Shown: piece after piece, positions 3,976 through 48,859 of the stretch
How positions within the stretch are numbered: the stretch's first letter is position 1
Layout of the letters: each line of letters opens with the position of its first letter
NCBI GenBank assembly: GCA_049515895.1
Contig: JBEKTQ010000027.1
Coordinates: forward strand, 1-57,061
Direction: 5' to 3'
DNA length: 57,061 nt
DNA from: Candidatus Bathyarchaeia archaeon
GTDB taxonomy: Archaea > Thermoproteota > Bathyarchaeia > Bathyarchaeales > Bathycorpusculaceae
Position numbers and translations under genes: made by a program
Notes under the pieces: generated by a model
Database searches by the model: none
The model's input: the letters and a program-made list of their open reading frames with translations, nothing else
What the model was told of the DNA's origin: nothing

Positions 3976-5220
3976 CTAGATTAGTGATTCGTAGATTTTT
4001 AGTGTCTCGTCAGCAGCTTTGTGCCATGTGAAGTACTCTAGCACCCTTTTGCGACCGTTCTCACCCCAATTTCTAGCTTTTTCGGGGTTCCGCAGGGTCA
4101 ATTTTATCCCCCAAGCAATATCAAGGGGATCTCCGCCGTTAACATGCACGCCGTTCTGGTCTGGGCCAGAGCTTAATACTTGTTCTCTGAAACCTACCAC
4201 CCCGCTTGCGCCTACAACAACTGGTTTCTCCATTGCCATGGCCTCCAGACTAACTATTCCGAAGGGTTCATAGACTGATGGGAATATACATACGTCGGAA
4301 GCGGCGTAATGCATTATTCTTTCAGGTTCCGGAACAAAATCAAAGCGGCACGCTACGTTGTTCTTAATGTTTAGCCTATCTGCTGTCTCAGTTATGTCTT
4401 GTTCGTCCCCTTTGCCCAGAATTACGAGTTTAGTGTTAGGGAATTCCTTCAAGACAGAGGGCATTGCTAACAAAAGGTTTCTGGCCCCCTTTACCCAAGA
4501 TAACCTTCCAACGAACAGAAGCATGTTCCAGTCCTTTGGAACGCCATATTTTTCCCGAGTCGCTGCAATGTCCTTTGGATCGCATTTTGCCATATCGTAA
4601 CGTTCGGGGTCCACGCCGTTCCAAACCGTGCTAATTTTTGATGACGCCCAACCGTGCCTCACTAGATCTTGTTGCATCGCGAAACTGACGGTGATTATTC
4701 TGTCTGAATTTTGGGCCATGGCGTCTTCAAAATGCGACACTACTTCTGATCCTTGACCCTCGCTTCTTCCCCATTCAGTGCTGTGTGTATGGAAGACCAC
4801 TGGGATTTTTGTTTCATTCTTTATTATAAGACCAGAAATACTGCTTAACCAATCGTGCACGCACACAACGTCAAAATGGTATTTCTCCTTTTTTATCAGA
4901 CCGTTGATAAATTTTGTAGCGCTGAGAATATTGTATATGAAAATGTCGTTGAAGAATTTTATGTTGGTACCCCATTTCTTTAAATCGTCAACCACGAAAA
5001 ATGGAAAAACGTTGCTAGCGTCAGCAATCAAGGGCCGATGAACCTCAACTCCTTTGATGATTTCTCTGGTTTTCAAATTTCCCCCATTTAGCGTGAAGAC
5101 TGAAACGTCATGTCCTAAGTCGATATATTGCTGAGTTACATTTTCAGCATACGTACCTAAACCACCAACAATCGCCGGCGGATATTCATAAACAAAAAAG
5201 CCAATCCTCAAAATATTCAC
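3976..5220 (-). CDS. GT4 family glycosyltransferase (glycogen synthase-like)
   Basis: EYPPAIVGGLG, HDW, HSTEWGR, NGVD, PSVYEPFGIVSLEAMA; adjacent to the branching enzyme. Confidence 0.9.
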   Translation of the reverse strand: MNILRIGFFVYEYPPAIVGGLGTYAENVTQQYIDLGHDVSVFTLNGGNLKTREIIKGVEVHRPLIADASNVFPFFVVDDLKKWGTNIKFFNDIFIYNILSATKFINGLIKKEKYHFDVVCVHDWLSSISGLIIKNETKIPVVFHTHSTEWGRSEGQGSEVVSHFEDAMAQNSDRIITVSFAMQQDLVRHGWASSKISTVWNGVDPERYDMAKCDPKDIAATREKYGVPKDWNMLLFVGRLSWVKGARNLLLAMPSVLKEFPNTKLVILGKGDEQDITETADRLNIKNNVACRFDFVPEPERIMHYAASDVCIFPSVYEPFGIVSLEAMAMEKPVVVGASGVVGFREQVLSSGPDQNGVHVNGGDPLDIAWGIKLTLRNPEKARNWGENGRKRVLEYFTWHKAADETLKIYESLI

Positions 5221-5379
5221 CCGAGTTATAGCACCAGACTAATTACGAGTTGTATCCATAGGTTTCACAAGTACTTAAATGAATAAAAAATTCACATAAC
5301 TACCGATCAGAAATAAGTAATTTGCGTGAATCTTGTTCCCAGGCTTCTTTTGGATCCTAAGCCTGCGGAAGTGTCCCGC

Positions 5380-6411
5380 CTATCCGAAGAATGTTGCCGC
5401 TATTTCATAAAGCTTTGAATCAACAGTTTTCCGCTTGCCGATGACGTCCTTCAAGGGCACGGATACAATGGCGTTTCCTTGTATGGCAACCATCTGGCCG
5501 AATTTGCCTTCGTGTACTAGGTCAATTGCGGCGATTCCAAATCGGGTAGCTAAGACTCGATCATAAGCGTTCGGAGAGCCGCCGCGTTGAAGATGCCCAA
5601 GAACCACTGCCCTGGTTTCAATGTTTTCAAATCTCTTCTCTATTTCTTTTCCTATGTAGTAGCCTACACCACCAAATCTTGCGTGCCCAAACTCGTCTAC
5701 CCCGCTGCTATAAACGATTTCTTCGCCTCCTTTTGGTTTGGCGCCTTCGGCAGCGACGATTATGCTGAAGTTTCGACCGCGTTTTTGCCTCTTGCTTATG
5801 CATTCGCAGACTTCTTCAACATCAAATGGCTTCTCAGGAATTAGGATTACGTCTGCCCCTCCGGCAATTCCTGCCTCTAAGGCGATCCAACCGGTGTATC
5901 TGCCCATAACTTCAAGGATTAACACCCTATGATGCGATTCTGCCGTTGTGTGAAGCCTATCAAGTGCTTCACAAGCAATGGCAACTGCCGTTTGGAACCC
6001 AAAGGTATAGTCAGTGCCAACCAGGTCGTTGTCGATCGTTTTGGGGACTCCGACCACAGGAAGCCCCATTTCGCAGAGTTTGGAGGCTACGCCAAGCGTG
6101 TCCTCTCCGCCTATTGCGATGACCGCTCCAATTCCCTGTTCGGAAACGTTTCTCAGAATACACTTTGCTCCGTCTTTGCTCTTGAACGGATTAGTCCTCG
6201 ACGTGCCTAGTATGGAACCTCCCTTAGGGAGCAAACCTACAAGAGACTTCAAGTCTAACGGGATGAATTCACCTTCAACTAATCCTTTCCAACCGTCTTT
6301 AATTCCTACAGTTTCATATCCGTAGTCTTGAATTGCCTTTCTAACGATGGCTCTCAGGACGGCGTTGATGCCAGGTGCATCTCCCCCACCGCTCAATATA
6401 CCAACTTTTAT
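5380..6411 (-). CDS. pfkA: PfkA-family 6-phosphofructokinase, probably PPi-dependent; apparent ATA start
   Basis: (I)KVGILSGGGDAPGIN, GGEDT and PKTIDND (Asp/Lys signature of PPi-type), EVMGR, LGHLQRGG; frame open to ATA 6411 with GGAGG 7 nt upstream. Confidence 0.93.
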   Translation of the reverse strand: MKVGILSGGGDAPGINAVLRAIVRKAIQDYGYETVGIKDGWKGLVEGEFIPLDLKSLVGLLPKGGSILGTSRTNPFKSKDGAKCILRNVSEQGIGAVIAIGGEDTLGVASKLCEMGLPVVGVPKTIDNDLVGTDYTFGFQTAVAIACEALDRLHTTAESHHRVLILEVMGRYTGWIALEAGIAGGADVILIPEKPFDVEEVCECISKRQKRGRNFSIIVAAEGAKPKGGEEIVYSSGVDEFGHARFGGVGYYIGKEIEKRFENIETRAVVLGHLQRGGSPNAYDRVLATRFGIAAIDLVHEGKFGQMVAIQGNAIVSVPLKDVIGKRKTVDSKLYEIAATFFG

Positions 6412-7636: not shown

Positions 7637-8095
7637 TTGGAGAACAAAAAGAAAGTTGAAACAAGCAGTTATGACCCTTATGGTCGTGGCAGAGAAACGT
7701 TGCCGTTCAAGGTTGTTGTGAAGCCGCGGTCGGTTATGGGCGATTACATTGCACTTCACGGTTTGTGTCCGCAGAACGAGTTGCCTGAGAACCTGCGTCA
7801 CAAGATTCCCGAGGATGAAATATGGATGAGAGAGGACGTATTTGACGATCCGAAAAGAAGAGAGCGTATTCTTCAGGGCCACGAGAAATACGAACTCACG
7901 TTGATGGAGACAGAGGGTTTGACCTATAAGGAAGCGCATCGTAGAGCAGAATTGCATGAGAAATTCTATCTGCTTGAACAAGACTTCGAAAAACTTGACA
8001 GAAATCTTAAGATAAGAAACTATGAGCCTGTGCACATTGTGGAACCGAAGCGGAAACCACAAGTGAAAACCAAAAGACAGAACAAACAAACTTAA
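7637..8095 (+). CDS. Hypothetical protein with HExxE...AH metal-binding-like motif
   Basis: GGAGG SD before TTG; GHEKYELTLM..GLTYKEAH. Confidence 0.7.
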   Translation: MENKKKVETSSYDPYGRGRETLPFKVVVKPRSVMGDYIALHGLCPQNELPENLRHKIPEDEIWMREDVFDDPKRRERILQGHEKYELTLMETEGLTYKEAHRRAELHEKFYLLEQDFEKLDRNLKIRNYEPVHIVEPKRKPQVKTKRQNKQT

Positions 8096-8340: not shown

Positions 8341-8826
8341 ATGGCGAGGAAAATGGAAACAAGACATCGCTCAATCATTAGGCCAGCCAGCGGCAACGAT
8401 TTAGATGCTATTTCGGAAATAGAGCAAAAATGCTTTGCAGGACCTATTGCCTACTCCAAACGTCAATTGGCGTACCTAATCTTACACGCTAACAGTACTA
8501 GCTTCGTTGAAAGCTGTGGAGGCGTGATAAGAGGTTTCGTGATAGTGACTTATCGCCAGCGTAGCCTAATCAGTCACATCGAAACCATTGATGTGGACCC
8601 GACCTACACCAAACTAGGGATAGGATTGAGGCTGTTGACATTCGCGGAGGAGGATATGCGGAAGCGGGGGAAACGCTGGTCGCAGTTGGAAGTCTCGGAG
8701 AGCAACAAAATTGCATTTAAGCTTTACAACAAAGCTGGATATATGCTTAAAGAAAGGGTCAAACGATATTACAAGTACGAACATGGAGGTACCCGTGACG
8801 CGATGCGCATGGTCAAAGCTCTTTAG
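8341..8826 (+). CDS. GNAT N-acetyltransferase (RimI-like)
   Basis: IETIDVDP..KLGIGLRLL, LEVSESNKIAFKLYNKAGY, RYY..DAMRM. Confidence 0.9.
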   Translation: MARKMETRHRSIIRPASGNDLDAISEIEQKCFAGPIAYSKRQLAYLILHANSTSFVESCGGVIRGFVIVTYRQRSLISHIETIDVDPTYTKLGIGLRLLTFAEEDMRKRGKRWSQLEVSESNKIAFKLYNKAGYMLKERVKRYYKYEHGGTRDAMRMVKAL

Positions 8827-10244
8827 GCGAATTCACAGCTCTTCCAAGGGTCTCCTTCTAGCTTGGTGAAACCCTTTGTGTATTCCGCCATAATTTTGAG
8901 AAGAGGGACCCGAAAACGAGCCGGTATGAGTTCGATGTCGCTTGTGGGTTTATTCAAGTGTATTGTTTCTACGTGAGAATATTCCTTTCCGACTAAGCCA
9001 GGTAGTTTTGAAAGAAATAGGGAATGCTCTCGTTCGTCTTCATCGAGTCTGAGTGTTCCTTCTGACACTCGTTTAGGAAATGCGCTGATGTCTTCTTTGC
9101 GATATTCCATAATCGACGGGTCCACTTGGTTTGCCAAAAGAAAGAGGAGCACTCCTTGGCATTTGCTGCAATGGCCACACGGGACTATCTTGCCTTTTTC
9201 GAAGCGACAACTGTGGCATGATCGCTGAACTCTCGCCAGTTCAGGGTATCTATTTGTTAGCACTCTTTCGACGATCAAGCCTGAGATTGGCCGAACGGCG
9301 CTCCACTGTCGCATCCCTGGCAGCCTCTTCATATACCATTGTTCCATTCTTAGGTCAAAATCCTGTGTCTGATCGTAGACGCCGAAGTAGTGTTTTATTC
9401 CTTTGAAAAGGGGCGAGGCACGGGGGTCATCTAGTTCACTTCCGATTAGGAGATTCCCTATTTTTCTATGCACAAAAATAGGAAGGAGGAGAAAAACGTA
9501 GATCGGAAAAATGCAGAGTCTTATCGGGTAAGTATCTGACCAGACTTTTCTGTGATCAGACCTTATGATTCTCATGTGGTCCAACATGAAAGTGTAAAAA
9601 CGATCCACATTGGTCCATACTCTCGTGGTGTTCGGTTCATTCTTTACAAATTGGCGGTAAGCAGTTAATGCTGTTCGCCAATGCCCTCCGCTTTCGTTGA
9701 TGTATAATGGGTGGACTTCAGCGCCGATTTCTTTGAGCATCGCATACGTCAGTAAGCTTTCTTTTCCTCCGCTAGATAGCACGCCGCAAGAGTTGTCGGT
9801 GAATTCCTGCGAGATTGGAACATCTTCGAAAAGCGCTGAAGGAATTATCTTTGCTAAGGGGCGAACATTTTCATGCGTTACCTCGCATTCAAGGGGTAGA
9901 AAATTAGGCAAAATGTAGGGGTTACTCCTCCGAACAAGTTTATTGACGAAAATGTCTGTAGTGAATATTTCCAGGAGATCATTTAGTAGGGAAATATCCG
10001 AAGCGCTGACAGGGAACGTAAGTCTAATTTCTTTTGAGAATAGACCATAATTGAGAACTGGCATGACCGAGGCAAGCCGGATTAAAGGCAAGTCTTCCGG
10101 AATGAGAGGCTCTCCATATTTAAATGAAAGGGGAAAATTATGCTTCTTTACTTTAATGTCAGTGCACGATACTTGAGTGGTTACTCTTTTCCCTTGGAGA
10201 ATAGGATCCGAGACTTCAATAGACTGAAAACATTGGAGGTTCGT
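8823..10244 (-). CDS. PP-loop ATPase, MurL/QueC-like, with C-terminal Cys cluster; probable ACG start
   Basis: VLSSGGKES PP-loop; CHSC..PCGHCSKC; frame open 51 codons upstream of the TTG at 10091 to ACG 10244, directly after the TAA of the upstream gene, with a GGTGA SD. Confidence 0.75.
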   Translation of the reverse strand, partial: TNLQCFQSIEVSDPILQGKRVTTQVSCTDIKVKKHNFPLSFKYGEPLIPEDLPLIRLASVMPVLNYGLFSKEIRLTFPVSASDISLLNDLLEIFTTDIFVNKLVRRSNPYILPNFLPLECEVTHENVRPLAKIIPSALFEDVPISQEFTDNSCGVLSSGGKESLLTYAMLKEIGAEVHPLYINESGGHWRTALTAYRQFVKNEPNTTRVWTNVDRFYTFMLDHMRIIRSDHRKVWSDTYPIRLCIFPIYVFLLLPIFVHRKIGNLLIGSELDDPRASPLFKGIKHYFGVYDQTQDFDLRMEQWYMKRLPGMRQWSAVRPISGLIVERVLTNRYPELARVQRSCHSCRFEKGKIVPCGHCSKCQGVLLFLLANQVDPSIMEYRKEDISAFPKRVSEGTLRLDEDEREHSLFLSKLPGLVGKEYSHVETIHLNKPTSDIELIPARFRVPLLKIMAEYTKGFTKLEGDPWKSCEFA

Positions 10245-11306
10245 TTAGTCACCTTCTCGGAGAGCTTCGATCGCATCTACTAATTTTCCTACGCCGTCAG
10301 AAACGGGGTCTTCCACCGTTACTTTGAATCTCCTGTGTAGTCTTGCTTTGGCTTTGCTCGCTTCTTCTGGTGATAAGTTCTCGTGGTTTAATCCTATTCC
10401 AATAAGAGGACATTGGGACAGCAACTTTGCAATTTTAATCACTCGCCCCGGGTCTGGCATCGGATAATCTGGGAATCCGTCTAGATGTGACCGCCCAGGA
10501 GCATCTTGCAAGGCGAAACCGTGGATCTTGCCAGCTGCCATTATTTCAAACCCGCCTGGGAAGAAAGGATGTACGAGGCTGCCTTGACCATTTATTATCA
10601 TATAGTCCGGTTTTTCATCCTTCCATGAATCCAATATGGCGCCTTCAATGCCGCCGGATACGAAGTCATTTATCATTGCATCCATAACTATGCCGTGTGG
10701 CCAACCTTGCATCCACCCTGTCTGTCCAGTAAATATCATGTCTGCTTTTCGGCCGCGCCGTCTGAGCTCTTGAACTAACATTACACATGTAGTTCTCTTG
10801 CCGACTGCTGAATCGGTTCCCAAAACTGCAATCCTGGTTGACCCAACTTGGCTGATTTCACCTGTGTAAAATCGCTTGTGATCGCGGAACAATTTGCGAA
10901 CATCCACGATTTTACAGCCGTTCTTCGCGGCTAAGCCGACAAATCGCTCATCATCAGAGATGAAATGATGCAGCCCGGAAACGATGTCAAGTCCATGTGA
11001 CAAAGCCCAGGTGATGGCTCCGTCGTACCCTTCTGGCAAGAATCCGCCCTCTGAAACGGCACCAACTATGAAAACCTCTGGTTTCGTTTTCCTGAAAGCT
11101 TCTTCTAGACCAGAAAACAGAGGGATGCCTCGGGGATTTCCATCCAATACTTCCCCTGCGTCACCGGATGGCGCGGTTGAATCGACTACTCCAACAATAT
11201 CGTATCTGGTCGTGTGACGCACAAGTCCGTGGGCAGTCTTACCGTTAGCTGTTAGGTATTCACGTTCGCAATAGACTAACGCCTTTCCCCCGGGCATAAG
11301 GGTCAT
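10245..11306 (-). CDS. DUF1611 family protein (DgcN-like)
   Basis: GKTAHGLVR, IVSGLH, GTDSAVGKRTT, TGQTG, DFVSGGIE, GQGSLVHP. Confidence 0.9.
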   Translation of the reverse strand: MTLMPGGKALVYCEREYLTANGKTAHGLVRHTTRYDIVGVVDSTAPSGDAGEVLDGNPRGIPLFSGLEEAFRKTKPEVFIVGAVSEGGFLPEGYDGAITWALSHGLDIVSGLHHFISDDERFVGLAAKNGCKIVDVRKLFRDHKRFYTGEISQVGSTRIAVLGTDSAVGKRTTCVMLVQELRRRGRKADMIFTGQTGWMQGWPHGIVMDAMINDFVSGGIEGAILDSWKDEKPDYMIINGQGSLVHPFFPGGFEIMAAGKIHGFALQDAPGRSHLDGFPDYPMPDPGRVIKIAKLLSQCPLIGIGLNHENLSPEEASKAKARLHRRFKVTVEDPVSDGVGKLVDAIEALREGD

Positions 11307-12445
11307 GCTTTCCGTCCGGTTAAGATTACCACGTATCGATCACCTGGAAAAGGTTCCTTTCGATGGCGATCTACGAGCGCCACAAGACCCGCAGTCGACG
11401 CGGGTAGCACACTCAAGCCTTCCTTTTCGCGTATTAATCGGGCATAATCCAGAAGTATCTTGTCAGTCGTGAACGATGCCCATCCTCGAGTCTGTCTAAT
11501 GACTGAAAGGGCATACTCTCCGTCTATTGAGCGCCAGTTAATAAGGGGTTCATTAACTGAAGTGTTCCTTATTCGCTCAGGCTTCAAATCGATACACTTT
11601 GAAGAATTTTTGACGAAAGAGTGAATTATCGGATTCATGCCGTATGAAGAGCCTGCGATAAAACGGGGAATGCGAGACGTCTTTCCACGATTATAAAGGC
11701 TTACGAAGCCTTTGTATATCCCTACCAAAGTAGACCCATTCGATACTGGAACAGCGACTGCAGCAGGCGCGTCGCGAAGCTCGTCGTAAATTTCGTAGGC
11801 AATTTCACCGTATGCTTTTAACTGCAGGTTGGTGTTTAACCCTCCTGGATTAGCATCATAGTACCCTTCTTTTTCCGCTTCAAGGCGCGAAACCTTCACC
11901 GCCTCTTCATAATCTCCAGGCACTCTGATGATCTCGGCCCCAAAACGTGCAATTTCCTTCACCCTGTGGGCGTAATACCCCGATGGAATGTAAATTAAAC
12001 AGCCCAAACCTGCTAAGGATGCAGCAAGCGCCACCGCCGTACCATAGTTGCCGCATGAAGCCACTGTTATCTCATCATACCCTCTTCGCAATGCGTCTAA
12101 AGCTTGTGCGAAAGCTATGCGGTCTTTCTGCGTACCAGTGGGGTTACCACCCTCGAATTTTAAGTATATCTGCCTAAGCCCGATCTCTCTTTCTATGTTT
12201 CTGGCTCGAGTAAGACTAGTGTCACCAACCTCTGAGTCAAGAATTATCTCATAACTCTCCAAACGTTCAGGAAGTGACCTAGTGTGATCAGACGCGATCT
12301 TGCTAAGAGAATACAATTCAGGAGTGATAACCGGGATTTGGGCAGTGGCCCCGTCCAAAAGCGATAGAGAACCATTGCTCTTAACTAGCCCGTCAAAAGT
12401 CTTCTCTTGACCGTGACTGGAACTTTCCTTGTCCCCATCATCCAT
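11303..12445 (-). CDS. Fold-type II PLP-dependent enzyme (threonine synthase-like)
   Basis: LKFEGGNPTGTQKDR (PLP Lys), ASCGNYG, VPVSNGSTL, VLPAST; 4-nt overlap with the DUF1611 gene. Confidence 0.9.
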   Translation of the reverse strand: MDDGDKESSSHGQEKTFDGLVKSNGSLSLLDGATAQIPVITPELYSLSKIASDHTRSLPERLESYEIILDSEVGDTSLTRARNIEREIGLRQIYLKFEGGNPTGTQKDRIAFAQALDALRRGYDEITVASCGNYGTAVALAASLAGLGCLIYIPSGYYAHRVKEIARFGAEIIRVPGDYEEAVKVSRLEAEKEGYYDANPGGLNTNLQLKAYGEIAYEIYDELRDAPAAVAVPVSNGSTLVGIYKGFVSLYNRGKTSRIPRFIAGSSYGMNPIIHSFVKNSSKCIDLKPERIRNTSVNEPLINWRSIDGEYALSVIRQTRGWASFTTDKILLDYARLIREKEGLSVLPASTAGLVALVDRHRKEPFPGDRYVVILTGRKA

Positions 12446-12861: not shown

Positions 12862-13623
12862 TTAAACTGTAGACAGGTTGACTTTCAACCTCTCGCGTAG
12901 CCCGCTGAAAGAGAATTTTATGGCTTTCTTTGGGCAGGTGTCCACGCAAGAGCCGCATAAGATACACTCAGTATTCGCCATGGATTTGTTCTGAACCATT
13001 TCGTTTACATTAAGGCTCATTGGGCAATGGTTGCTGCATTGCTTGCACTCAACACAAAGGCTCTTGTCTGCCTCTAAGTGTAGCGATGGGTATCCTATCC
13101 CGTTCTTGATTTTGGTTCCTGCTATCATGAAAGGGGCCATCCAACAGATAGTATGACAAGCTGCGCGTCTGCCCGTTGCGAGGGAAAAAACTGCAATGGA
13201 GCCTGCAATTACTGCGAACATTATAGCTGAGGCCACGTTTTGGATTGAAATGCCGTTCCATGTCTGGTAAAATAGGTCAACTGATTTTACTCCTCCCGCT
13301 TGTATAAACAAAACGATGGTCAAGGATAGCCATGGTGCCCAAATGAAGTATTTTACGAGGTTGCATTTTTTGCCGTTAAAGCGTTTGCTGTTGACTTTGA
13401 TGCAGAGTTCCTGTATCGCTCCGGCGGGACAAATCCATCCACACCAAACTCGTCCGAGAAACAGCGAAGATACGAATAGCCCTGCGAAGACTATGGCGTC
13501 GCCGGCGATAATTCCTGCAGTTGCACCCATGATGATCACGTAGGGCGACAGGTAGTAGTAAATTAGCGGGAACAGAAAGACCATACCTATTGCAAGTGCA
13601 AGTCTTGCTTTTTGCCTATTCAT
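12862..13623 (-). CDS. Membrane 4Fe-4S binding protein (NapH/MauN-like)
   Basis: GRVWCGWICPAG, CHTICWMAP, two CxxCxxCxxxCP motifs, TM helices; GGAGGTGA SD. Confidence 0.9.
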   Translation of the reverse strand: MNRQKARLALAIGMVFLFPLIYYYLSPYVIIMGATAGIIAGDAIVFAGLFVSSLFLGRVWCGWICPAGAIQELCIKVNSKRFNGKKCNLVKYFIWAPWLSLTIVLFIQAGGVKSVDLFYQTWNGISIQNVASAIMFAVIAGSIAVFSLATGRRAACHTICWMAPFMIAGTKIKNGIGYPSLHLEADKSLCVECKQCSNHCPMSLNVNEMVQNKSMANTECILCGSCVDTCPKKAIKFSFSGLRERLKVNLSTV

Positions 13624-13882
13624 GGCGCTCACCTCCGAGGGCTACAGCTTTTTCAACTTCAAGGCAGCCTTTCAAGTCTTCTTGGGTAATGTCAACCCTT
13701 AACACGCCATTTGAGCCTTCGATTTGCAACATTAGACCTTCAACGAGGGAGATTTCTTTGAGTTCGCCCAAGAAGCCTTCAAATAAAACATTAGCGTTTT
13801 CCTTGTCAAGAAAAGACATTCGCCTGATGGAGCTTTGTGACTTCATTTCGACGGAGAATGAATGTTCTTCAACTTTTTTCAT
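13616..13882 (-). CDS. Hypothetical protein
   Basis: GAGG SD; translationally coupled to the downstream Fe-S gene. Confidence 0.75.
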   Translation of the reverse strand: MKKVEEHSFSVEMKSQSSIRRMSFLDKENANVLFEGFLGELKEISLVEGLMLQIEGSNGVLRVDITQEDLKGCLEVEKAVALGGERHE

Positions 13883-40655: not shown

Positions 40656-41039
40656 TTAGATAACAAATTCAACGCCTTCCAAGCCTTTGAACCATTTGTC
40701 CCCAGTCAGAAATTTTATGTTAGACTTTTTTGCAAGATAATATCCCAACGCATCGGCATAAGATATGTCACGACCATTTTTCTTTAGCTTTAACCAAAGT
40801 TTCATTGCGCCCTCAATATCGGCTACCCCGAAATCCGTCACAAATTTAGCAAACGCTTTAACCACCTGAGAGGCGGCTTGTGCTCCGTGAACTTCAAGAG
40901 TTCGATAGTATATTTCCATTAAATTTAGCTTGGTTAAAATGCCGTCATTTTCTTCGAAAAAAGGCCTGTATTTTGGGTTGTCACTAAGATAAGCAAGAAC
41001 AGCATAGCTGTCATAGAAGAACCGTTTAGCTTTCTGCAA
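40656..41039 (-). CDS. vapC: VapC/PIN toxin
   Basis: FFYDSYAVL, NLME, ISYADAL, FLTGD. Confidence 0.9.
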   Translation of the reverse strand: MQKAKRFFYDSYAVLAYLSDNPKYRPFFEENDGILTKLNLMEIYYRTLEVHGAQAASQVVKAFAKFVTDFGVADIEGAMKLWLKLKKNGRDISYADALGYYLAKKSNIKFLTGDKWFKGLEGVEFVI

Positions 41040-41040
41040 A

Positions 41041-41247
41041 TCATGCCCAGCCGATTTTCATTTCGTCTTTCTCATGCTGCAAGTCCTTGAAAGGATATTT
41101 GCCTCTGAGACAACTCACGTCAGATGATTTTCTCACTATTACTTCTACTTCTTCGTCTTCTTTGAGCCCTTCTTCGTCAACCAGTGTTTTCGGCAACACG
41201 ATGCCTAACGAATTTCCCCAACGCTTGACTTTTGTCTTCGCTATCAT
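41041..41247 (-). CDS. AbrB/MazE-family antitoxin
   Basis: KVKRWGNSLGIVLPK; directly upstream of the PIN gene. Confidence 0.9.
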   Translation of the reverse strand: MIAKTKVKRWGNSLGIVLPKTLVDEEGLKEDEEVEVIVRKSSDVSCLRGKYPFKDLQHEKDEMKIGWA

Positions 41248-41312
41248 AATTAGACATGTATAACTACACAGATTTAAAACTTGCTGACCGCTGCATAAAG
41301 ATAGAGACAAAA

Positions 41313-41350
41313 TGGGCCCGCTGGGAACCGACTCTGTGCAGCCGCCTTTT
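41313..41350 (-). repeat. tRNA-3'-end-like att remnant, copy A
   Basis: Minus strand ..GGTTCCCAGCGGGCCCA; 27/38 ungapped identity to 49978-50015. Confidence 0.5.
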
Positions 41351-41390
41351 ATACTATTTTTCCTGTTTTTTGTTTTTTTATTTTTGTCCT

Positions 41391-41885
41391 TTAGATTTGC
41401 TTATCCCAGCCTTCGCCGAATTTCTCGTCTGCTCGCTTTTTTTGCTCTCTCAGATGAACCATAGCGTCATCCAGCCGCAATACACCTGCAAATAAGTCAA
41501 CATTTTCAGCGATGGCACAGACATTTGCTTCCCACTTGCTGTTCGCATCGAATCTATGAACATCTAAGTTAACCAAGTGCTCGAGTAGTTTTCCGCCCTT
41601 AGTAACTAAGTCAACCGAAATGAAGTAGGCGTCGCCCACCTGAGACTTTACCTTCCTAACCGCCATTTCTTGTTCATTTGCATGTTCTTTGTACCAATGC
41701 TCCTTGTACGCCTCATAGCCGCTTAAGGTTTTGGGCGCAGTAAAGTTGCAATTTTCCCACAAAGGTTGTCCCGGAGTAGGCGTCAAATATCTTTTGTTTG
41801 TGCAATATAGTTTATCATAATTATTAGAAGGCTTTGGAGCACCATCCAGCAACTTCCTAACGCTAAATTCTTCCTTTTTAGACAA
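41391..41885 (-). CDS. Hypothetical protein with a putative C2H2-type zinc finger
   Basis: YC..CNF..Y..HW..EH; purine-rich SD. Confidence 0.65.
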   Translation of the reverse strand: MSKKEEFSVRKLLDGAPKPSNNYDKLYCTNKRYLTPTPGQPLWENCNFTAPKTLSGYEAYKEHWYKEHANEQEMAVRKVKSQVGDAYFISVDLVTKGGKLLEHLVNLDVHRFDANSKWEANVCAIAENVDLFAGVLRLDDAMVHLREQKKRADEKFGEGWDKQI

Positions 41886-42020
41886 CTGAATTTCCCCTCT
41901 CTTCTTCCTCTTTTAATTATTTACTTTTTGTAAAACTGTATTTCAATTTAACGCATGTCCGACACTCTTCCCCATCATCGTCAGGTTCTTGTTCTATTCC
42001 AGTCGGGAAATTTATGATTT

Positions 42021-42419
42021 TTATTTCCCAATATCATTTAGCACTGATGCTTTAATGGCGGGTGTTGCCTTTTTGATTAGCTGGAGGTCTTCGGTTATTA
42101 GTTGCAATTCTTTGAGTCTGGCCAGGTAAACGTATGAGGCATCGTAAAATGTGGTTTTCAATTGCATTGCCGATTCCAGTATTTCTTCTTCATTGCCCTC
42201 TATCGGTATGACTTCCATTAGATTTAGCGTGTGCTTTATTGACTTTAAGATCATTTTTGCTTCGTCTTTTGAGATTTTGGCCTGCAAGAAATAATTTTTC
42301 CAAACAATGTTTCCCAGTTCATACCTTGCTAGCTCCAAAGTAAAGTTTCCAACTAACAGGTCGATTTTGTTTTCTTTAACAACTCTAAATATGGCTGAAG
42401 AATCAAACAGGTACTTCAT
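42021..42419 (-). CDS. vapC: VapC/PIN toxin
   Basis: YLFDSSAI, YELGN, TFYDASY, LITED. Confidence 0.92.
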   Translation of the reverse strand: MKYLFDSSAIFRVVKENKIDLLVGNFTLELARYELGNIVWKNYFLQAKISKDEAKMILKSIKHTLNLMEVIPIEGNEEEILESAMQLKTTFYDASYVYLARLKELQLITEDLQLIKKATPAIKASVLNDIGK

Positions 42420-42646
42420 TGGCTTTCTCTATCTTCTCTTATGCTACTAACTATATCTTCCATGCCTACTTTCTCGAGAATGGGTTTTAATCTGATTATT
42501 TCTTGCTTAAGTTGTTCCGCTTCTTTCCTTTTTATTTCATCTTCGATAGCTTTTCGCAATATTTTGGATGGTTTGATCTTGAGGGTTCTCATTTTTTCTT
42601 TGAGTTGTTTAGGAATTTTTGTAGAAACTGTTACGCATTCGGGCAA
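42416..42646 (-). CDS. RHH-type antitoxin (VapB)
   Basis: VTVSTKIPKQLKEKM..SKILRKAIEDEI..IREDRE; ATGA overlap with vapC. Confidence 0.85.
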   Translation of the reverse strand: MPECVTVSTKIPKQLKEKMRTLKIKPSKILRKAIEDEIKRKEAEQLKQEIIRLKPILEKVGMEDIVSSIREDRESQ

Positions 42647-42873
42647 TTTCTCACAAAAAGGTAGTAATGAAAGTAAGTAAAAAATGTTTCCAATTTTTCT
42701 TACCTTTTGAGTTTTCTTATCGCGACATAAATATGGCAGCAGAGCCGATGCTTGGAAGCTGAAGCAATTCATGGGTTTAAAACCATTTGACAGCACAGCT
42801 AGTCTTGTTCAACGGAGCTGGGAAGAAAACGAGAAGACATTTACCCGCCTTAGCGGGGAACTTCGTTCAAAAA

Positions 42874-43161
42874 TTAAAGCTTTAGCGTTTCGTTTCTCTC
42901 TTCAACATTCATGTATCTTCTTAAACACAACTCGTAGTCGCTACATTTTCCTGGCTCCGAGCAGCTGAAAAATCCGACGCAATCATTGAGGGATTCCTCC
43001 ACTTTCAAGTCGGTCAATACAGGTAAATTTATCTCAAATTCTTGAGGTTTTGCTTTTTGAGGGGCCTTCCCTTTACCCCTAGATTCAAAATATTCCTCAA
43101 CTTTTAAGTCAGTTAACATCGCTAAATCTGTGTCAAATTCTTGGGTTTTACGAGAGGCCAC
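42874..43161 (-). CDS. Small protein with an internal ~20-aa duplication and a C-terminal Cys cluster
   Basis: QEFDTDLAMLTDLKVEE / QEFEINLPVLTDLKVEE; CVGFFSC..C..YELC. Confidence 0.65.
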   Translation of the reverse strand: MASRKTQEFDTDLAMLTDLKVEEYFESRGKGKAPQKAKPQEFEINLPVLTDLKVEESLNDCVGFFSCSEPGKCSDYELCLRRYMNVEERNETLKL

Positions 43162-43174
43162 TCCATTTCTTCCC

Positions 43175-43330
43175 CTATTCTATAAGTCCGTGTTTTTGGA
43201 GGACCTCTACAACATACCTATTGTATCTCTCTTCTTCTACCCGCTGTTGCAGGAAGGCTCTAGCTTGTGCCAGAACCTCGTTTCTTTGAGAATCAGAGAG
43301 TTCAAGCAAATTAACCGTTATTTTCTCCAT
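43175..43330 (-). CDS. 51-aa microprotein, paralog B (not in ORF track)
   Basis: MEKITVNLLELSDSQRNEVLAQARAFLQQRVEEERYNRYVVEVLQKHGLIE*. Confidence 0.7.
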   Translation of the reverse strand: MEKITVNLLELSDSQRNEVLAQARAFLQQRVEEERYNRYVVEVLQKHGLIE

Positions 43331-43352
43331 TCCAATTTCACCACATTAAGGT

Positions 43353-43538
43353 TCAATAATTTTCTTCTAACTCGTTTAAATCAGCTACGACTTCATCCTC
43401 GTCTAGAATTGACGCTGAAATACGCCTATAATATCTCTCTTCTTCAACTTGCTCGTGCAGATAGGCTCTAGCTTGCGTCAATACTTCGTTTCTTTGAGAA
43501 TCAGAGAGTTCAAGCAGATTAACCGTTATTTTCTCCAT
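43353..43538 (-). CDS. 61-aa microprotein, paralog A
   Basis: MEKITVNLLELSDSQRNEVLTQARAYLHEQVEEERYY...; DNA near-duplicate of 43255-43333. Confidence 0.7.
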   Translation of the reverse strand: MEKITVNLLELSDSQRNEVLTQARAYLHEQVEEERYYRRISASILDEDEVVADLNELEENY

Positions 43539-44081
43539 TCCATTTCGCCCATACATAATGAATATGATATCTTAATAAATCACTTATTTCAACTACAAAC
43601 ATATATCCAAATTTGATACATCCTAAAAGCTATGGAATTTTTTCAGAGACTTTCCCCGCATTAGCGTTTCCTTTGATCGTTGAAACTCCCCAAAACTCCG
43701 CCTGCACCACAACAAACTTAACATCATCCAAAAATTGTAGAAACAGTTTGCCTGTACTAACTCTAAGAAATCTCAGGTGCGTCTTCCAATGCCTAATTCA
43801 AAAGGAGCGCGCGCTCCCCCTTAAAAATCTCCCATTCAGTAGTGGCATCTTAAGCTAAAATAACTTTTGCTTTGAGCGCGCATTCACATGGTGCACGATG
43901 TATATCGCTACATGTGAAGAACGTTTAATAGGTAAAACCATCAGCTAACAGGTAGTCCCAAAAACCCTCAAGTGGACTAAAGGACAAGTCAGTGGTTTGG
44001 CTCCCTTATAATCTCCCTTCTCCCCCGCCAAACCACTTTCTTGCTCTTTCCCTCATTTCAAACATAAGGAAGAAAATAAGA

Positions 44082-44492
44082 ATGATGAAACTGACCCCTT
44101 ATCTTCTATTCAATGGCACTTGTAAACTTGCGATGGAGTTCTATCAATCTTGTTTTGGAGGAGAACTGAATCTCCAAAAAGTTGGTGACTCTGCCATGAA
44201 GGATCAGATGTCGCTTGCAACGCATCAAAAAGTACTCAATGCACATCTCAAAAGCAAGGTTGTCGAAATTTCAGCCTCAGATTGGCTGCGACCGGACCGA
44301 ACACCGATACAGGGCAATACGGTGTGTCTTTACCTTAGCGGCGGAACTCCAAAGGAACTCAGAGAATTCTTTGGCAAACTTTCAGATGGAGCCGATGTAA
44401 CTGACCCTCTTAAAGAGATGTTTTTTGGCATCTACGGGGCGCTGAACGATAAATTTGGTGTCCGATGGATGTTCCAAGCAAACAAGAGTTAA
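44082..44492 (+). CDS. VOC/PhnB-like glyoxalase family protein
   Basis: LTPYLLFNG.C..AMEFYQSCFGG, FFG.YG...DKFGVRWM. Confidence 0.92.
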   Translation: MMKLTPYLLFNGTCKLAMEFYQSCFGGELNLQKVGDSAMKDQMSLATHQKVLNAHLKSKVVEISASDWLRPDRTPIQGNTVCLYLSGGTPKELREFFGKLSDGADVTDPLKEMFFGIYGALNDKFGVRWMFQANKS

Positions 44493-44649
44493 ATCGACAG
44501 CGTGAAAGGGTATTTGGCACTGTGTAAAACTGAGCTGAGCCGAACTTGAACGGGTTAAAGCCACTCTTTTAGTCAACAATTTCCTACAGGTCTAAGCAGG
44601 ACTGCCCGTTACTGAATCCAAAAGGAATAAGCATTAGAGGTGTCGTCAA

Positions 44650-44803
44650 TTGGGTTGTTATCTTGGGTTTACTACAGTGAAAAGAGTGGCACGATCATTG
44701 CAGAGCTTATGATGTCAGCTACCATGTGTGTGAACCGACTAACTGCGACATTGCGGCTTCTCGCAAATATGAAGCCGTAAAAGAGGCTGTCAAGAAACGT
44801 TAG
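44650..44803 (+). pseudogene. Putative 50-aa Cys/His microprotein with a +1 frameshift
   Basis: GAGGTG SD; removing one A from GTGAAAAGAG gives MGCYLGFTTVKEWHDHCRAYDVSYHVCEPTNCDIAASRKYEAVKEAVKKR*. Confidence 0.4.
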
Positions 44804-44866
44804 GCGATATCTGCTCCTACGATTAAAGGGTGCCCCGAGAAAAGAAAAAAAGAGAAATTTTTACTA

Positions 44867-45070
44867 TTAATGTTTAGATTTTTGCGCCAACGCCGCTGCT
44901 GCTACAATTGCAATTATCACACCAAGTCCGATAACTGTCCAGTATAGGTAGGTAATGCTCTCCTTAGGGATGACATAGCACCAAAGCAACGAAACAAGTA
45001 CCACCAAGATACCCAAAAAAAGTTCTGCCCCTGCAAAAGCCTTATTTGCTGCCAATCTTTTTTCCCCCAA
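44867..45070 (-). CDS. Small two-TM membrane protein
   Basis: Two hydrophobic helices. Confidence 0.6.
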   Translation of the reverse strand: MGEKRLAANKAFAGAELFLGILVVLVSLLWCYVIPKESITYLYWTVIGLGVIIAIVAAAALAQKSKH

Positions 45071-45183
45071 AAAAATATGACGGCATCATCTTTTATGTTT
45101 TGCTATGCTATCCTTGCGCTGCGGGATGCCACTTAGCGCGTGCCAATTTGGTGTCAGGTGTAGGCGCCTGTTGACATGTTTTG

Positions 45184-45663
45184 TTACGCTGGTTGTGCTA
45201 CTGGCGGCATTAGTTTTGCATTATCCAAACCATAGCATAAGTGGTTGTCATAGTCTCTGAAGGTGAATATGGTTCCTGAAAAGGAGACTACTTCTGGTCC
45301 GTTTGCAAAGGTTGGAGCACTCAATCCCTCTGATACTGATGAAGACAGATCTGTGATGAAATTTGAGGAGGATGTTATATTTGTTGATGAAACAATGTAA
45401 ATTATTGTTCCGTTGGGCAAACTCAGACCTGAGTACACATCGTTGCTTATTGTTATTCCCCAAACCAAAGGAACGGATGTGTTTGTTCCAGGCTGCGCAA
45501 GCTGTGGCGGTGATACTGAACTCAACGTGCCTTGGTAGGTGCCGGCTGGCAACGTTGGACTAAAAGCGAAGGGATGAGGATGCAAAACCAATTCAATGAC
45601 TACGAGAAGCAATATTATTGCAATAATTATTATGAAAATCGAAATAATGTTCTTCTTGTTCAT
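45184..45663 (-). CDS. N-terminally anchored extracellular hypothetical protein
   Basis: Hydrophobic N-terminus, Ser/Thr-rich body with NxS/T sites. Confidence 0.7.
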   Translation of the reverse strand: MNKKNIISIFIIIIAIILLLVVIELVLHPHPFAFSPTLPAGTYQGTLSSVSPPQLAQPGTNTSVPLVWGITISNDVYSGLSLPNGTIIYIVSSTNITSSSNFITDLSSSVSEGLSAPTFANGPEVVSFSGTIFTFRDYDNHLCYGLDNAKLMPPVAQPA

Positions 45664-45884
45664 TTTCTTTCTCTGAACTCTTAATCTAACTAAGCCAATA
45701 TTAGCTTATACTTTTGAATTCATGTTTGGAGCCAGTTGGCAAACCTTTTATTCGCTACATTTAAGCAAGCACAACGGGGTAATAAGATGGATGGAAAAAA
45801 CTCCAATTTCTAATCTTACTCGCAAGATTAGCAAAATAAGCAACGCACTGGCGCGCGAAGAAGCCTGAGCCGTGAAGTTGCTGC

Positions 45885-46280
45885 TCAGGTGCCTGACTTT
45901 GGCGGCATCATGCTGCCTAGCAATTCGGTCAGAGGCGGCGTACTTATCGGTTCGTCTTCCACGATTTTTTCGTCAGCGAGACGGTAATAGGTGATGACTC
46001 GTGCAGAGGCCTTTTTTCCGCTGGCGAGGGTGATGTTCATGTTGCCCCGAAATACGACCGCATCGCCTTCGGCTACTATATCCGCGATTTCAAAATCGCG
46101 GGTCGGCGCAGCGGCCTTCAGACCGGAAATCATAGCCTTGAAACCAGTGCGATTGGTGACGCCCATACTCGGATTCACATAATTTGGCGCAAGCAATTCG
46201 TCGATAAGGTCGATATTGCCACCGCCCAACACCTCTGTGATGAATCTGCGGACGATGGCTTTGTTCCTATCAGTAGTCAT
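45885..46280 (-). CDS. SnoaL-like / NTF2-family protein
   Basis: RNKAIVRRF, DELLAP, IVAEGDAVV, YRLADEKIVE; GGAG SD. Confidence 0.88.
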   Translation of the reverse strand: MTTDRNKAIVRRFITEVLGGGNIDLIDELLAPNYVNPSMGVTNRTGFKAMISGLKAAAPTRDFEIADIVAEGDAVVFRGNMNITLASGKKASARVITYYRLADEKIVEDEPISTPPLTELLGSMMPPKSGT

Positions 46281-46540
46281 TTAAAATTCTCCTATACCGT
46301 GAGATGGTCACGCAGTCAATATAACTCTATTGGCTCACATTGTCACGGAAGGCAAAGGAATCGTAACCACCAAGAATCAAGAGCACACAATTACGCCTGG
46401 AATGATAGTTTTTGTTTCTCCGGGAGAGGAGCATTAGCACGGAGCCACCAAAGATTCATCCTTTGCCCACCTATCCATAATCGGCCAGCCTCATGAAATG
46501 AAGACAGTGGAAAAATAATCAGATTCGGGCCTGCGCAATG

Positions 46541-46804
46541 TCAAATGGCGCATACCGGTCCTTTTTGAGCGCTCAATATGACTGAAGTTACTGTGCTCTT
46601 AATGCCCTTGATCTTCATTATTCTTTTTTTCAGGACATCGCTTAATGCCTCAATATCCGAGGCCGACACAATCGCAACGACGTCAAATTCGCCTGTTACC
46701 TCGTAAAGTTCCTCTACTACGTCTATCTGAGAAAGAGATTCAATCACCTCATCCATTTGCGACGACTCGACAAAAATGTTTACCAAAGCATGTAATTCAT
46801 GCAC
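46541..46804 (-). CDS. Lrp/AsnC ligand-binding domain protein
   Basis: YEVTGEFDVVA..IKGIKSTVTS. Confidence 0.9.
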   Translation of the reverse strand: MHELHALVNIFVESSQMDEVIESLSQIDVVEELYEVTGEFDVVAIVSASDIEALSDVLKKRIMKIKGIKSTVTSVILSAQKGPVCAI

Positions 46805-47138
46805 TTAACTCACCAACAAATTCGCAGAAACTCTTTAATCTTCCACTGACGAGGCAACTATTGTACTTTTCCTAGACCATCTTGGCTCGCGAGAATAAAA
46901 TTGGAAGGGAAAGTGGGACGTGAGTGCCATTCACTTATAACTTTGGGATCCATCAAAGCCGATTTAGTCCTGGTTCTGCCAGCGAACTACGGCTGGGGAG
47001 CCCGATGGGCGACAGACCATAGTTTTCTGAGTTTAACGAGATTTTGATTAGTTTTCTTCAATATCCAGCTATCAGAAGATATTGTTAAGTGATTTGTGGA
47101 AGTTAATGTCAACCAGCAATCAATTTTGATGAATAACT

Positions 47139-47551
47139 CTAACTATTCAGAACATTTAGCATTTCCTCAACTGTTAGGATTTTTATCCCTTTGAATTCTT
47201 TCAACGAAAGCAGGTGCCTGTCGCCTGAAACAATGTAGTCAGCTTTGCCATCATAAGCAGCTCGTATAATAATGTCATCGTCAGGGTCTTCCGCTATAAC
47301 CCTAAACTTGGACTTTACTTGCGTAAATTTGCCTATTCGACTCAAGTCAGCTAAGAACAACTTAACATCAATTTCTGTCACATATTTTTCAAACTTTTTA
47401 CGGCTCACAACATTAACGAACTCTGAAGACATTTCTTCCGATAATTCGAGAGTAAACTCATTGTTTTTTGCCCTGCGCCAAAGTTCCTGAGGCTTCCTAC
47501 GACTATCAAACTGGAAACCAGCACATTAATGTCGAAAACTACGACAATCAA
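47139..47551 (-). pseudogene. PIN-family toxin with a 1-nt deletion near 47495
   Basis: MIVVVFDINVLVSSLI in one frame and KPQELW...EDPDDDIII..ADYIVSGDRHLL in the next; span 413 nt. Confidence 0.85.
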
Positions 47552-47565
47552 GTAATTCCCGATTC

Positions 47566-47865
47566 CTATGCCTTTTTAGCTCTTGCAGCCTTCTCTTTTC
47601 TGTATTTTTGTATTTCCTCTTCTATGTCATCTTGCGTTAACTCGCCGTATTTTGCTATTCTTTCATCGACTCTTTTGTACATGGCTTCAATCTCTTTCGA
47701 GAAGTCCGGCTCTTCAAATTTCTTCAGTATCACCGCGTCGTCGCATTCATATACTAAGAATTTAGTTTTAGGTTTGAGACCCATCCGTAATCTTATTTTT
47801 GCAGGTATGACAACTTGACCTTTTTCGCTGAGAATCGTAAGTTCTGCCTTTTCACTTTGAGTCAT
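47566..47865 (-). CDS. AbrB/MazE-family antitoxin
   Basis: LSEKGQVVIPAKIR..GLKP. Confidence 0.9.
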   Translation of the reverse strand: MTQSEKAELTILSEKGQVVIPAKIRLRMGLKPKTKFLVYECDDAVILKKFEEPDFSKEIEAMYKRVDERIAKYGELTQDDIEEEIQKYRKEKAARAKKA

Positions 47866-48114
47866 TCGTTGCTCCAATTATCATCTTACATTCTTACCTA
47901 AATAGCTATCTGTGGCAAAGAAATTCTTCAGGTAGGCCTGGTGAAGAATTCCCTGCGCTTTAGACAGTGGATTGAATTGCTGTTATGTCCTGAACTCACC
48001 TGTGCAAGGTATTTTTCGTTGGCCAAATTTTTCATGTCAACAATACCTTAAAATATTTTAGTGTTACTTTGCATTATACGCTGTATTTGCGCGTAATTAA
48101 CAGGTGATGGCTTC

Positions 48115-48351
48115 ATGGTAAAAAATGTTATAAATTTGGATGAAAGAGAAAACCGAGTTATCAATATAGTCAAAGCAAAGTATGGGCTGAAGGATAAAAA
48201 TCAAGCTTTAAGCATAATTATTAAGCGATACGAAGAGTGTGAGCTTGAACCTGAGCTTAGACCCGAATTTGTTAAGGGAATAGAGGAAACTGTGAAGAAA
48301 GGCAAATTCATCAAAGTCAAGGATTTCGCGGAAGAGTATGGGCTAAAGTGA
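48115..48351 (+). CDS. DUF2683-like antitoxin
   Basis: NRVINIVKAKYGLKDK..EPELRPEF; GGTGA SD. Confidence 0.85.
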   Translation: MVKNVINLDERENRVINIVKAKYGLKDKNQALSIIIKRYEECELEPELRPEFVKGIEETVKKGKFIKVKDFAEEYGLK

Positions 48352-48355
48352 TAGC

Positions 48356-48851: not shown

Positions 48852-48859
48852 TATAGTAG

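Follow-up and report, generated by a model that had tools for sequence, protein, structure and literature searches.

A conserved archaeal gene module with a DUF1611 protein and a MurL-superfamily PP-loop enzyme, and its possible role in D-amino-acid salvage

Results

Organization of the Gene Cluster

The gene cluster described here is located on contig JBEKTQ010000027.1 (assembly GCA_049515895.1) of a Candidatus Bathyarchaeia archaeon. The stretch of 57,061 nucleotides that was analysed is referred to as the window. It is archaeal: the nearest relatives of its genes were found in metagenome-assembled genomes (MAGs) of Bathyarchaeia, and among the housekeeping genes it carries are RadA, NFACT, aldehyde ferredoxin oxidoreductase, PFK and PEP synthase. 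Four genes make up the cluster, encoding a pyridoxal phosphate (PLP) enzyme, a DUF1611 protein, a PP-loop ATP pyrophosphatase and a GNAT acetyltransferase (Table 1). An earlier note on this DNA had described three minus-strand genes converging on the GNAT gene, and this was confirmed by the open reading frames (ORFs), their overlaps and the domain calls.

The genes are tightly packed. The stop codon of the PLP gene and the start codon of the DUF1611 gene overlap in the sequence ATGA, the TAA stop codon of the DUF1611 gene (10247-10245) directly abuts the coding sequence of the PP-loop gene, both being in one frame, and the stop codons of the PP-loop gene (8823-8825) and the GNAT gene (8824-8826) overlap on opposite strands. 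One genome per species was scanned for relatives of the PP-loop protein; at least 590 were found and the best 80 loci were kept for comparison. The four-gene arrangement is not a product of chance, as the same order recurs in these 80 loci from several archaeal phyla. The cluster is kept in archaea of sediments and hot springs.

Table 1. Genes of the cluster and the junction between the DUF1611 and PP-loop genes.
Feature	Position	Strand	Remarks
Fold-type II PLP enzyme, threonine-synthase-family paralogue	11303-12445	(-)	380 aa; first operon gene; PF00291
DUF1611 protein	10245-11306	(-)	353 aa; Rossmann-like N domain and P-loop C domain; PF07755 and PF17396
MurL-superfamily PP-loop ATP pyrophosphatase (by homology)	8823-10244	(-)	473 aa when read from the ACG codon
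GNAT acetyltransferase	8341-8826	(+)	161 aa; convergent; PF00583
TAA-ACG junction, DUF1611 stop then PP-loop gene	10242-10247	(-)	in frame; relatives have an ATG start here

Fold and Family of the PP-Loop Protein

The PP-loop protein carries SSGGKES and SCHSC...PCGHCSKC, and so contains both motifs that the earlier note had read in it (SGGKES and CxxC...CGHCSKC). Within its family S158, G159, G160, K161 and S163 are close to invariant, and Cys343, Cys356, Cys359 and Cys362 are conserved. Searches against Pfam (a copy without PF26298 and PF26299), NCBIfam and the PDB sequences returned nothing significant for the protein, and a profile of 25 relatives gave only sub-significant PP-loop and CxxC matches. 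The family itself is small: 1.84 billion representatives were searched, and 234 clusters were recovered at E ≤ 1e-3.

An AlphaFold2 model built on the 25-sequence alignment reached a predicted local distance difference test score (pLDDT) of 93.9 and a predicted template-modelling score (pTM) of 0.92. It was divided into an N-terminal domain (~1-150), a core (~150-380) and a C-terminal extension. Around the PP-loop, strand 149-157 was followed by helix 161-172; an SGGxDS-type loop ends the first Rossmann-like strand, as defines the PP-loop ATP pyrophosphatase superfamily. Four matches at E ≤ 0.001 were obtained when the model was compared with the PDB by Foldseek, namely two QatC entries (best 1.4e-5 over 471 aligned columns, query TM-score 0.37), Cap9 (1.9e-4) and QueC (3.1e-4, target TM-score 0.60). 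Weaker matches included NcsA, TtuA, ThiI, LarE and GMP synthetase, and PP-loop enzymes dominated the list. Since QatC, Cap9 and QueC led it, the region ~150-380 was considered to be a QueC-like PP-loop core.

Membership in QueC or another family of tRNA-modifying enzymes, which the earlier note had named as a finding that would overturn its reading, was rejected by hidden Markov models (HMMs), QueC having just the fold in common with the protein. The QueC models in Pfam and NCBIfam (PF06508 and TIGR00364) gave no match at E ≤ 0.01 for the protein and none at E ≤ 1 for the 25 family members, and no QueD, QueE or TGT genes were detected in the window scans. Membership in the qatABCD defence system was rejected as well: six proteins gave no PADLOC match, and the neighbours are DUF1611, PLP and GNAT genes. 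The window scans detected neither QatA, QatB, QatD or CBASS genes nor any RNA-binding domain.

The relation to MurL was seen at the level of families. Of the 30 clusters nearest to the protein in the ESM Atlas, 28 were MurL clusters with PF26298/PF26299 (score 0.96). A family of distant relatives of ~450 aa, found in DPANN archaea and candidate-phyla bacteria and designated A3, was aligned by hhalign with the PP-loop family (A2) over 301 columns with a probability of 99.95 and an E-value of 2.7e-38, and 3 of the 120 listed A3 relatives bear the precomputed label PF26298.1 (MurL_epimerase_C). Six A3-type proteins gave no match in the Pfam copy used here. The NCBIfam MurL model NF041275 was matched by 15 of 15 A3-type proteins (5.9e-12 to 5.5e-3), by the fusion proteins P0137 and P0138, which belong to the PP-loop protein's own family, and by 11 of the 25 members of that family at E ≤ 1 (best 1.2e-4); no other family recurred among the matches. 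Through this detectable homology to a PF26298-bearing family, the PP-loop protein is placed by sequence comparison in the MurL superfamily (PF26298/PF26299), not as a MurL equivalog. The A3 family (P0219-P0269 and further matches) is widespread in Aenigmarchaeota, Woesearchaeota, Nanoarchaeota and candidate-phyla bacteria.

The DUF1611 Protein

Both Pfam domains of the DUF1611 protein were above their gathering scores (PF07755, 188.3 bits, 1.3e-55; PF17396, 77.2 bits, 1.2e-21). Its matches in the PDB were 2g0t (1e-39), 7xrj (5.6e-34) and 2obn (1.9e-29), and it has the P-loop GTDSAVGKRTT in common with 2g0t and 7xrj. NCBIfam names the characterised member of the family N-acetyltransferase DgcN and its partner N-acetyl-D-Glu racemase DgcA. 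The DgcN-DgcA pathway is described as turning D-Glu irreversibly into L-Glu (PMC12363236, PMC10845958). By its family, the archaeal protein is a putative DgcN-like amino-acid N-acyltransferase. A gene of the enolase superfamily, to which DgcA belongs, was not found by tblastn in the 57-kb window.

Conservation of the Module and Natural Fusions

As judged from the record titles, the 80 loci comprised ~22 from Bathyarchaeia, ~52 of the Thermoplasmatota type, 4 from Thermococci, 1 from Thermoprotei and 1 labelled Eubacteriales. A quick tree was calculated from the 76 rows that were left once cluster members of fewer than 380 aa and any second copy at a locus had been removed. In 78 of the 80 loci the DUF1611 gene is the immediate upstream neighbour of the PP-loop gene, the exceptions being L056 and L062, the latter starting at the PP-loop gene, and the gap between the DUF1611 gene and the called start was at most 20 nt in 66 of 76 loci. 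The PLP gene was present upstream in 62 loci. The GNAT gene was found in 56, in 55 of them downstream (52 convergent and 3, from Thermococcus, co-directional). Because one Thermoplasmata clade of 10 loci retains the DUF1611 and PP-loop genes alone, this pair is regarded as the core of the module.

The association on which the earlier note had relied is thus conserved in these loci, and the linkage is further supported by a natural fusion of DUF1611 and PP-loop proteins, P0138 (855 aa). Fourteen long or partial representatives were scanned; besides this fusion, seven combined the PP-loop protein with a creatininase-family hydrolase and one with a methyltransferase (P0140), and five had no extra domain. 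One more creatininase fusion, P0384, was recovered in a search for longer forms, and the creatininase-type amidohydrolase is thus found at the C-terminus of eight proteins (P0137, P0142, P0159, P0173, P0185, P0190, P0193 and P0384). The best NCBIfam match of the hydrolase domain of P0137 was the peptidyl-dipeptidase MftE (161 bits).

Several loci deserve separate mention. The locus titled Eubacteriales bacterium (L050) forms a long branch inside the Thermoplasmatota clade of the quick tree, which suggests a mis-binned contig. One MAG contains two copies of the module (L015 and L046), the second of which gave shorter matches and is apparently degraded. In the Thermoplasmata loci L060 and L067 the module lies among the KsgA, DUF655, RpoF, Pus10 and S13 genes. 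In L079 it is accompanied by genes for a D-aminoacyl-tRNA deacylase and Tsr3 (5072-5818 and 9407-9922); the deacylase was seen in that locus only and is worth noting in view of a D-amino-acid reading.

An Epimerase and Peptidase Pair Next to the Module

All ORFs of the 80 loci were clustered to find further neighbour families. In 26 loci an enolase-superfamily enzyme and an M14-fold peptidase adjoin each other directly beyond the GNAT gene (L005, L008, L009, L012, L014, L015, L018, L019, L021, L022, L024, L027, L028, L031, L034, L035, L037, L040, L045, L048-L050, L056-L059). The pair occurs in both Bathyarchaeia and Thermoplasmatota; neither gene is present in the window. In L056 the pair is found with the GNAT and PP-loop genes in a locus that lacks DUF1611.

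The enolase-type enzyme scored best on NF041118, the model of the Thermotoga-type L-Ala-D/L-Glu epimerase (249 bits, cut-off 500), ahead of the DgcA model (157 bits, cut-off 400), and it shared 30% identity with E. coli YcjG (E 6e-26). The peptidase is a protein of 451 aa with an HSDE zinc motif and a helical C-terminal extension; of 25 members, 24 matched the Pfam family Peptidase_M14 at E ≤ 1 (best 3.2e-7). Its model (pLDDT 83.2) gave 172 Foldseek matches in the PDB at E ≤ 0.001, those listed, the majority of them, being carboxypeptidases throughout, and the ESM Atlas returned M14 clusters with a score of 0.98. The support extends only to the M14 fold. An orthologue of MpaA was also considered and was unsupported, the hhalign probability being 2.3%. 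In E. coli the ycjG-mpaA pair adjoins mppA, the gene of a murein tripeptide binding protein.

By analogy with such enzymes, the epimerase and peptidase pair points to the breakdown of D-Glu-containing peptides. The D-Glu-type chemistry put forward in the earlier note gained support here, as the additional neighbours in related loci belong to families acting on D-Glu-type peptides. Its proposal that a MurL-like enzyme replaces DgcA turned out to be too simple, and the mutual exclusivity of DgcA-like and MurL-like enzymes that it had suggested was rejected, since the two co-occur in the 26 loci with the pair.

In the Bathyarchaeia loci L012 (10000-10980), L014 and L015 a second PLP paralogue stands between the GNAT gene and the pair, and the same insertion holds deoxyhypusine-synthase-like genes (NF002294, 439.7 bits). 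Neighbour families present in 7-12 loci (geranylgeranyl reductase, endonuclease dU, NAD kinase, LuxC/LuxE, F420 ligase, copper ATPase and deoxyhypusine synthase) were set aside as lineage-specific and unrelated to the module.

The PLP Enzyme and the GNAT Acetyltransferase

The PLP enzyme matched PF00291 (3.9e-56), and its nearest solved structures were threonine synthases (ThrCs; 1e-25 to 9e-29). It scored 426 bits on NF004996, "PRK06381 threonine synthase", above the cut-off of 266, and 95.9 bits on the thrC model TIGR00260, below the 167.1 set for threonine synthase. We know of no assay behind the name of the PRK06381 model. The motif NSVNPxR[IL]EGQK, present in the four matched solved ThrCs, reads NPGGLNTNLQLKAYGE in this protein. 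On these comparisons it was treated as a ThrC-family paralogue and not assigned as a threonine synthase.

The GNAT protein contains the general GNAT domain (PF00583, 1.3e-12, 48.5 bits). It is closest to the N-alpha-acetyltransferases RimI, NAA20 and Ard1, the matches in the PDB being NAA20 (4.7e-8) and RimI (1.2e-6), and it was not assigned as RimI, having scored 64.7 bits on TIGR01575 against a cut-off of 86.4.

The Start of the PP-Loop Gene

The start of the PP-loop gene at 10244, taken over from the earlier note, required a correction: the codon is ACG and not ATG, GTG or TTG, and the first canonical start is the TTG at 10091. Relatives of the protein start with M-N-L-Q-C-F at exactly the position of the ACG. 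This codon occupies the start position in 9 of 78 loci, 5 of which have no canonical start nearby; the loci named along with the window for the ACG junction are L001, L003, L013, L010 and L071. Codons 1-51 form an open frame and are predicted to be folded in the AlphaFold2 model. When compared with L001, they differed by 5 synonymous and 11 non-synonymous changes, the rest of the gene by 52 and 31, respectively. Judged by these counts, codons 1-51 are under weaker constraint than the remainder of the gene. Initiation or re-initiation at ACG is possible at the junction, as is read-through of the TAA codon, which would give a fusion like P0138.

Discussion

A Proposed Route of D-Amino-Acid Salvage

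It was proposed that the DUF1611 protein and the MurL-like PP-loop enzyme act in sequence, by N-acylation and an ATP-dependent inversion of the alpha-carbon through an acyl-adenylate, most likely in the salvage of D-amino acids. We would give this reading a probability of about 40%.

The DUF1611 protein, as the family name DgcN implies, would first acylate the amino group of a free amino acid, the leading candidate being D-glutamate or another D-amino acid derived from bacterial debris. By analogy with MurL, the PP-loop enzyme would then spend ATP on adenylating an alpha-carboxylate, either that of the N-acyl amino acid or that of the C-terminal residue of a short peptide. The alpha-proton would thereby become labile, perhaps by way of an oxazolone, a form through which activated N-acyl amino acids are readily racemised. 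Hydrolysis would free AMP and the inverted product, so that the conversion would run in one direction. The acyl group would be stripped in a third step by an amidohydrolase encoded elsewhere, a function which in other lineages might be served by the creatininase or MftE-like hydrolase fused to the enzyme. Substrates from the same pool, amino acids or dipeptides, would be used by the ThrC-like PLP enzyme and the GNAT protein.

The mechanistic model is MurL, which is described as epimerising the C-terminal Glu of an N-acylated dipeptide in one direction only, with a requirement for ATP and Mg and with formation of AMP; adenylation of the alpha-carboxylate is its proposed mechanism (PMC5808125, PMC8788868). 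Judged from their families, all the enzymes of the enlarged set, the neighbouring pair included, would work at one end, amino or carboxyl, of an amino acid or a short peptide, and for two of them the characterised family members invert a residue that is C-terminal or N-acylated. Salvage of D-amino acids is favoured, with D-Glu as the first candidate, because of the DgcN-DgcA precedent and the peptidase and dipeptide-epimerase neighbours.

A number of observations weigh against this proposal. The link between the PP-loop protein and MurL is remote. The description of the protein as MurL-like in the earlier note stood as far as the superfamily is concerned (hhalign, NF041275 and ESM Atlas) but not for the equivalog: the window protein scored 11.6 bits (E 0.073) on NF041275, whose cut-off is 700. 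This model was matched at E ≤ 0.01 by none of the six closer relatives, and the N-terminal 150 residues of the protein lie outside the hhalign match to A3. The nearest solved folds, QatC, Cap9 and QueC, are described as enzymes that form amide bonds and not as epimerases (PMC13279940).

The DUF1611 protein scored 162 bits on the DgcN model NF041892 with its cut-off of 480. It is not a DgcN equivalog, and for this reason its substrate may differ from that of DgcN. As the enolase-type epimerase of the 26 loci is independent of ATP, the MurL-like enzyme could be redundant there or have another substrate. A conserved deacylase was found neither among the neighbours in the 80 loci nor in the window operon. 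The scheme needs no second acyltransferase beside either DUF1611 or GNAT, the PLP enzyme fits none of its steps, and a catabolic route that consumes both ATP and an acyl donor would be expensive.

Alternative Explanations

The strongest alternative, which we nevertheless regard as unlikely, is that the PP-loop enzyme is a ligase or amidotransferase. It would activate a carboxylate, perhaps of the product of DUF1611 or GNAT, for attack by an amine or ammonia, and the operon would yield a metabolite in which an N-acyl amino acid is amide-linked (an osmolyte, a chelator or a piece of a cofactor, for example), the PLP enzyme making an unusual amino acid. The closest solved folds in the Foldseek comparison, QatC, Cap9, QueC and an N-acetyl-sugar amidotransferase, are reported to join nitrogen to a carboxylate or carbonyl that has been adenylated (PMC13279940, PMC13329287). 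A ThrC-like enzyme as the first gene of the operon would suit biosynthesis, and two acyltransferases would suit a decorated product. However, profiles and language-model features group the PP-loop protein with MurL and not with QueC, whose models PF06508 and TIGR00364 are matched by none of the 25 family members. An amidotransferase or amine-supplying gene is not conserved near the module in the 80 loci, and the carboxypeptidase and dipeptide epimerase that adjoin it in 26 of them are degradative.

The epimerase activity could also be anabolic, working from L to D as in MurL; its product, an N-acyl-D-amino acid or a D-residue, would go into an as yet undescribed metabolite or part of the envelope of the archaea. 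MurL itself is described as working only from L to D (PMC5808125). The expenditure of ATP is more usual in biosynthesis, and the module is chromosomal and in the quick tree appears to be inherited broadly along taxonomy. A ligase using a D-product or a glycosyl-carrier gene was, however, not conserved nearby, and the characterised relative of DUF1611 is reported to work in the breakdown of D-Glu (PMC12363236, PMC10845958). With the carboxypeptidase and dipeptide-epimerase neighbours also suggesting catabolism, we consider an anabolic role improbable, more so than that of a ligase.

Modification of a macromolecule, either a protein terminus as in QatC and Cap9 (possibly that of DUF1611) or a tRNA or rRNA base, with the RimI-like GNAT acting on the same target, is highly improbable: the QueC core with N- and C-terminal extensions (~470 aa) does resemble QatC over 471 columns (PMC13279940), the GNAT protein is closest to protein N-terminal acetyltransferases and translation genes surround the module in one Thermoplasmata clade (KsgA, Pus10, RpoF, S13) and in L079 (D-aminoacyl-tRNA deacylase, Tsr3), but the TM-scores to QatC are low (0.37-0.41, rmsd (root-mean-square deviation) 11 Å), the PADLOC match, Qat and CBASS genes and RNA-binding domain were absent from the searches described above, the N-terminus of DUF1611 is not conserved and has no Gly motif, and the translation-gene context is limited to one clade of the quick tree.

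Comparison with Known Systems

D-amino-acid salvage by the DUF1611 and PP-loop pair would combine features of several known systems. The PP-loop protein shares its superfamily with MurL and is similar in length (473 aa against the 447 positions of the MurL model). S-x-G-K-[DE]-S, GNE/GSE, DQ[ST] and C...CxxCSKC are common to A3 and the PP-loop family, and the chemistry expected by analogy is an ATP-dependent activation of the alpha-carboxylate of an N-acylated residue. Unlike MurL, the protein is archaeal and has DUF1611 as its partner, and its N-terminal domain could not be aligned to A3. MurD2 or another Mur ligase domain was not found among the scanned window ORFs or in the sampled neighbour families of the 80 loci, and a UDP-MurNAc peptide is an implausible substrate.

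As in DgcN-DgcA, a DUF1611 protein is accompanied by an enzyme from which the inversion of an N-acyl amino acid is expected, with a net one-way conversion. The partner here is a PP-loop ATPase, whereas DgcA belongs to the enolase superfamily; the DUF1611 protein falls short of the DgcN cut-off, and the enolase-type enzyme nearby scores best as an L-Ala-D/L-Glu epimerase and not as DgcA. QueC, Cap9 and QatC are the best solved structural matches and have a Zn-binding cysteine cluster, and QatC is described as having N- and C-terminal extensions like those of the PP-loop protein (PMC13279940). In contrast to these enzymes, the protein has no QueC HMM or PADLOC QatC match, and no 7-deazaguanine or defence genes were found near it.

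The 26 loci with the epimerase and peptidase pair resemble E. coli YcjG-MpaA, in which a dipeptide epimerase and an M14-fold peptidase are also adjacent. The differences are that the window lacks the pair and that the archaeal peptidase, with its 451 aa and helical C-terminal extension, could not be linked to MpaA as an orthologue. Industrial deracemisation by N-acylamino-acid racemase and L-aminoacylase follows a similar logic: the amino acid is acylated, the N-acyl amino acid is racemised and the product is deacylated stereoselectively. The racemase needs no cofactor and is reversible, whereas ATP would drive a one-way inversion in the archaeal module.

Novelty and Significance

Within the literature that was searchable, no paper was found to deal with the PP-loop family or with archaeal DUF1611 proteins or MurL relatives, and there was nothing relevant on Bathyarchaeota and D-amino acids. 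In the 2026 survey of the QueC family (PMC13329287), supplements aside, the portions consulted contain no mention of DUF1611 or the PP-loop family. What would be new is a pairing of known types of chemistry, DgcN-like acylation and MurL-like ATP-driven inversion, that is placed in another domain of life and in a setting other than the cell wall.

The broadest form of the proposal is that peptidoglycan-free archaea carry the first MurL-type ATP-driven epimerase outside bacterial cell-wall synthesis, that it forms with DUF1611, by coupling or fusion, a one-way machine which acylates, adenylates and inverts, and that Bathyarchaeia, Thermoplasmatota and Thermococci use it to convert the D-amino acids of bacterial necromass to usable L-amino acids. 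We regard this as rather doubtful; if true, it would be a previously unseen enzymatic route in the turnover of subsurface carbon and nitrogen.

To our knowledge, MurL is the sole characterised enzyme of its kind. Reviews, as far as consulted, describe it as having no known conserved or cofactor-binding domains. The placement of MurL and the PP-loop family (at least 590 stretches in species-representative genomes) in a QueC-like PP-loop fold would give a structural handle on the mechanism. D-amino acids are a large and recalcitrant pool of organic nitrogen. If the archaeal enzymes invert N-acyl amino acids, the use of D-amino acids by abundant sediment archaea would be explained, DUF1611 would gain a second type of partner, and heat-stable catalysts for one-way deracemisation would become available. 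If the product is an amide instead, there would be a new archaeal metabolite to be found.

Other Features of the Window

The genes flanking the cluster are not kept with it: the 4Fe-4S membrane protein (12862-13632) was found in none of the 80 loci and orf152 (7637-8095) in one. No Rfam families were found in the window. The region 41000-54000 has a lower G+C content (0.38-0.43) and many small ORFs without a Pfam match; it also holds a PIN-domain gene (49122-49547) and a GmrSD-like restriction gene (50232-52085), and it may be a defence or mobile island.

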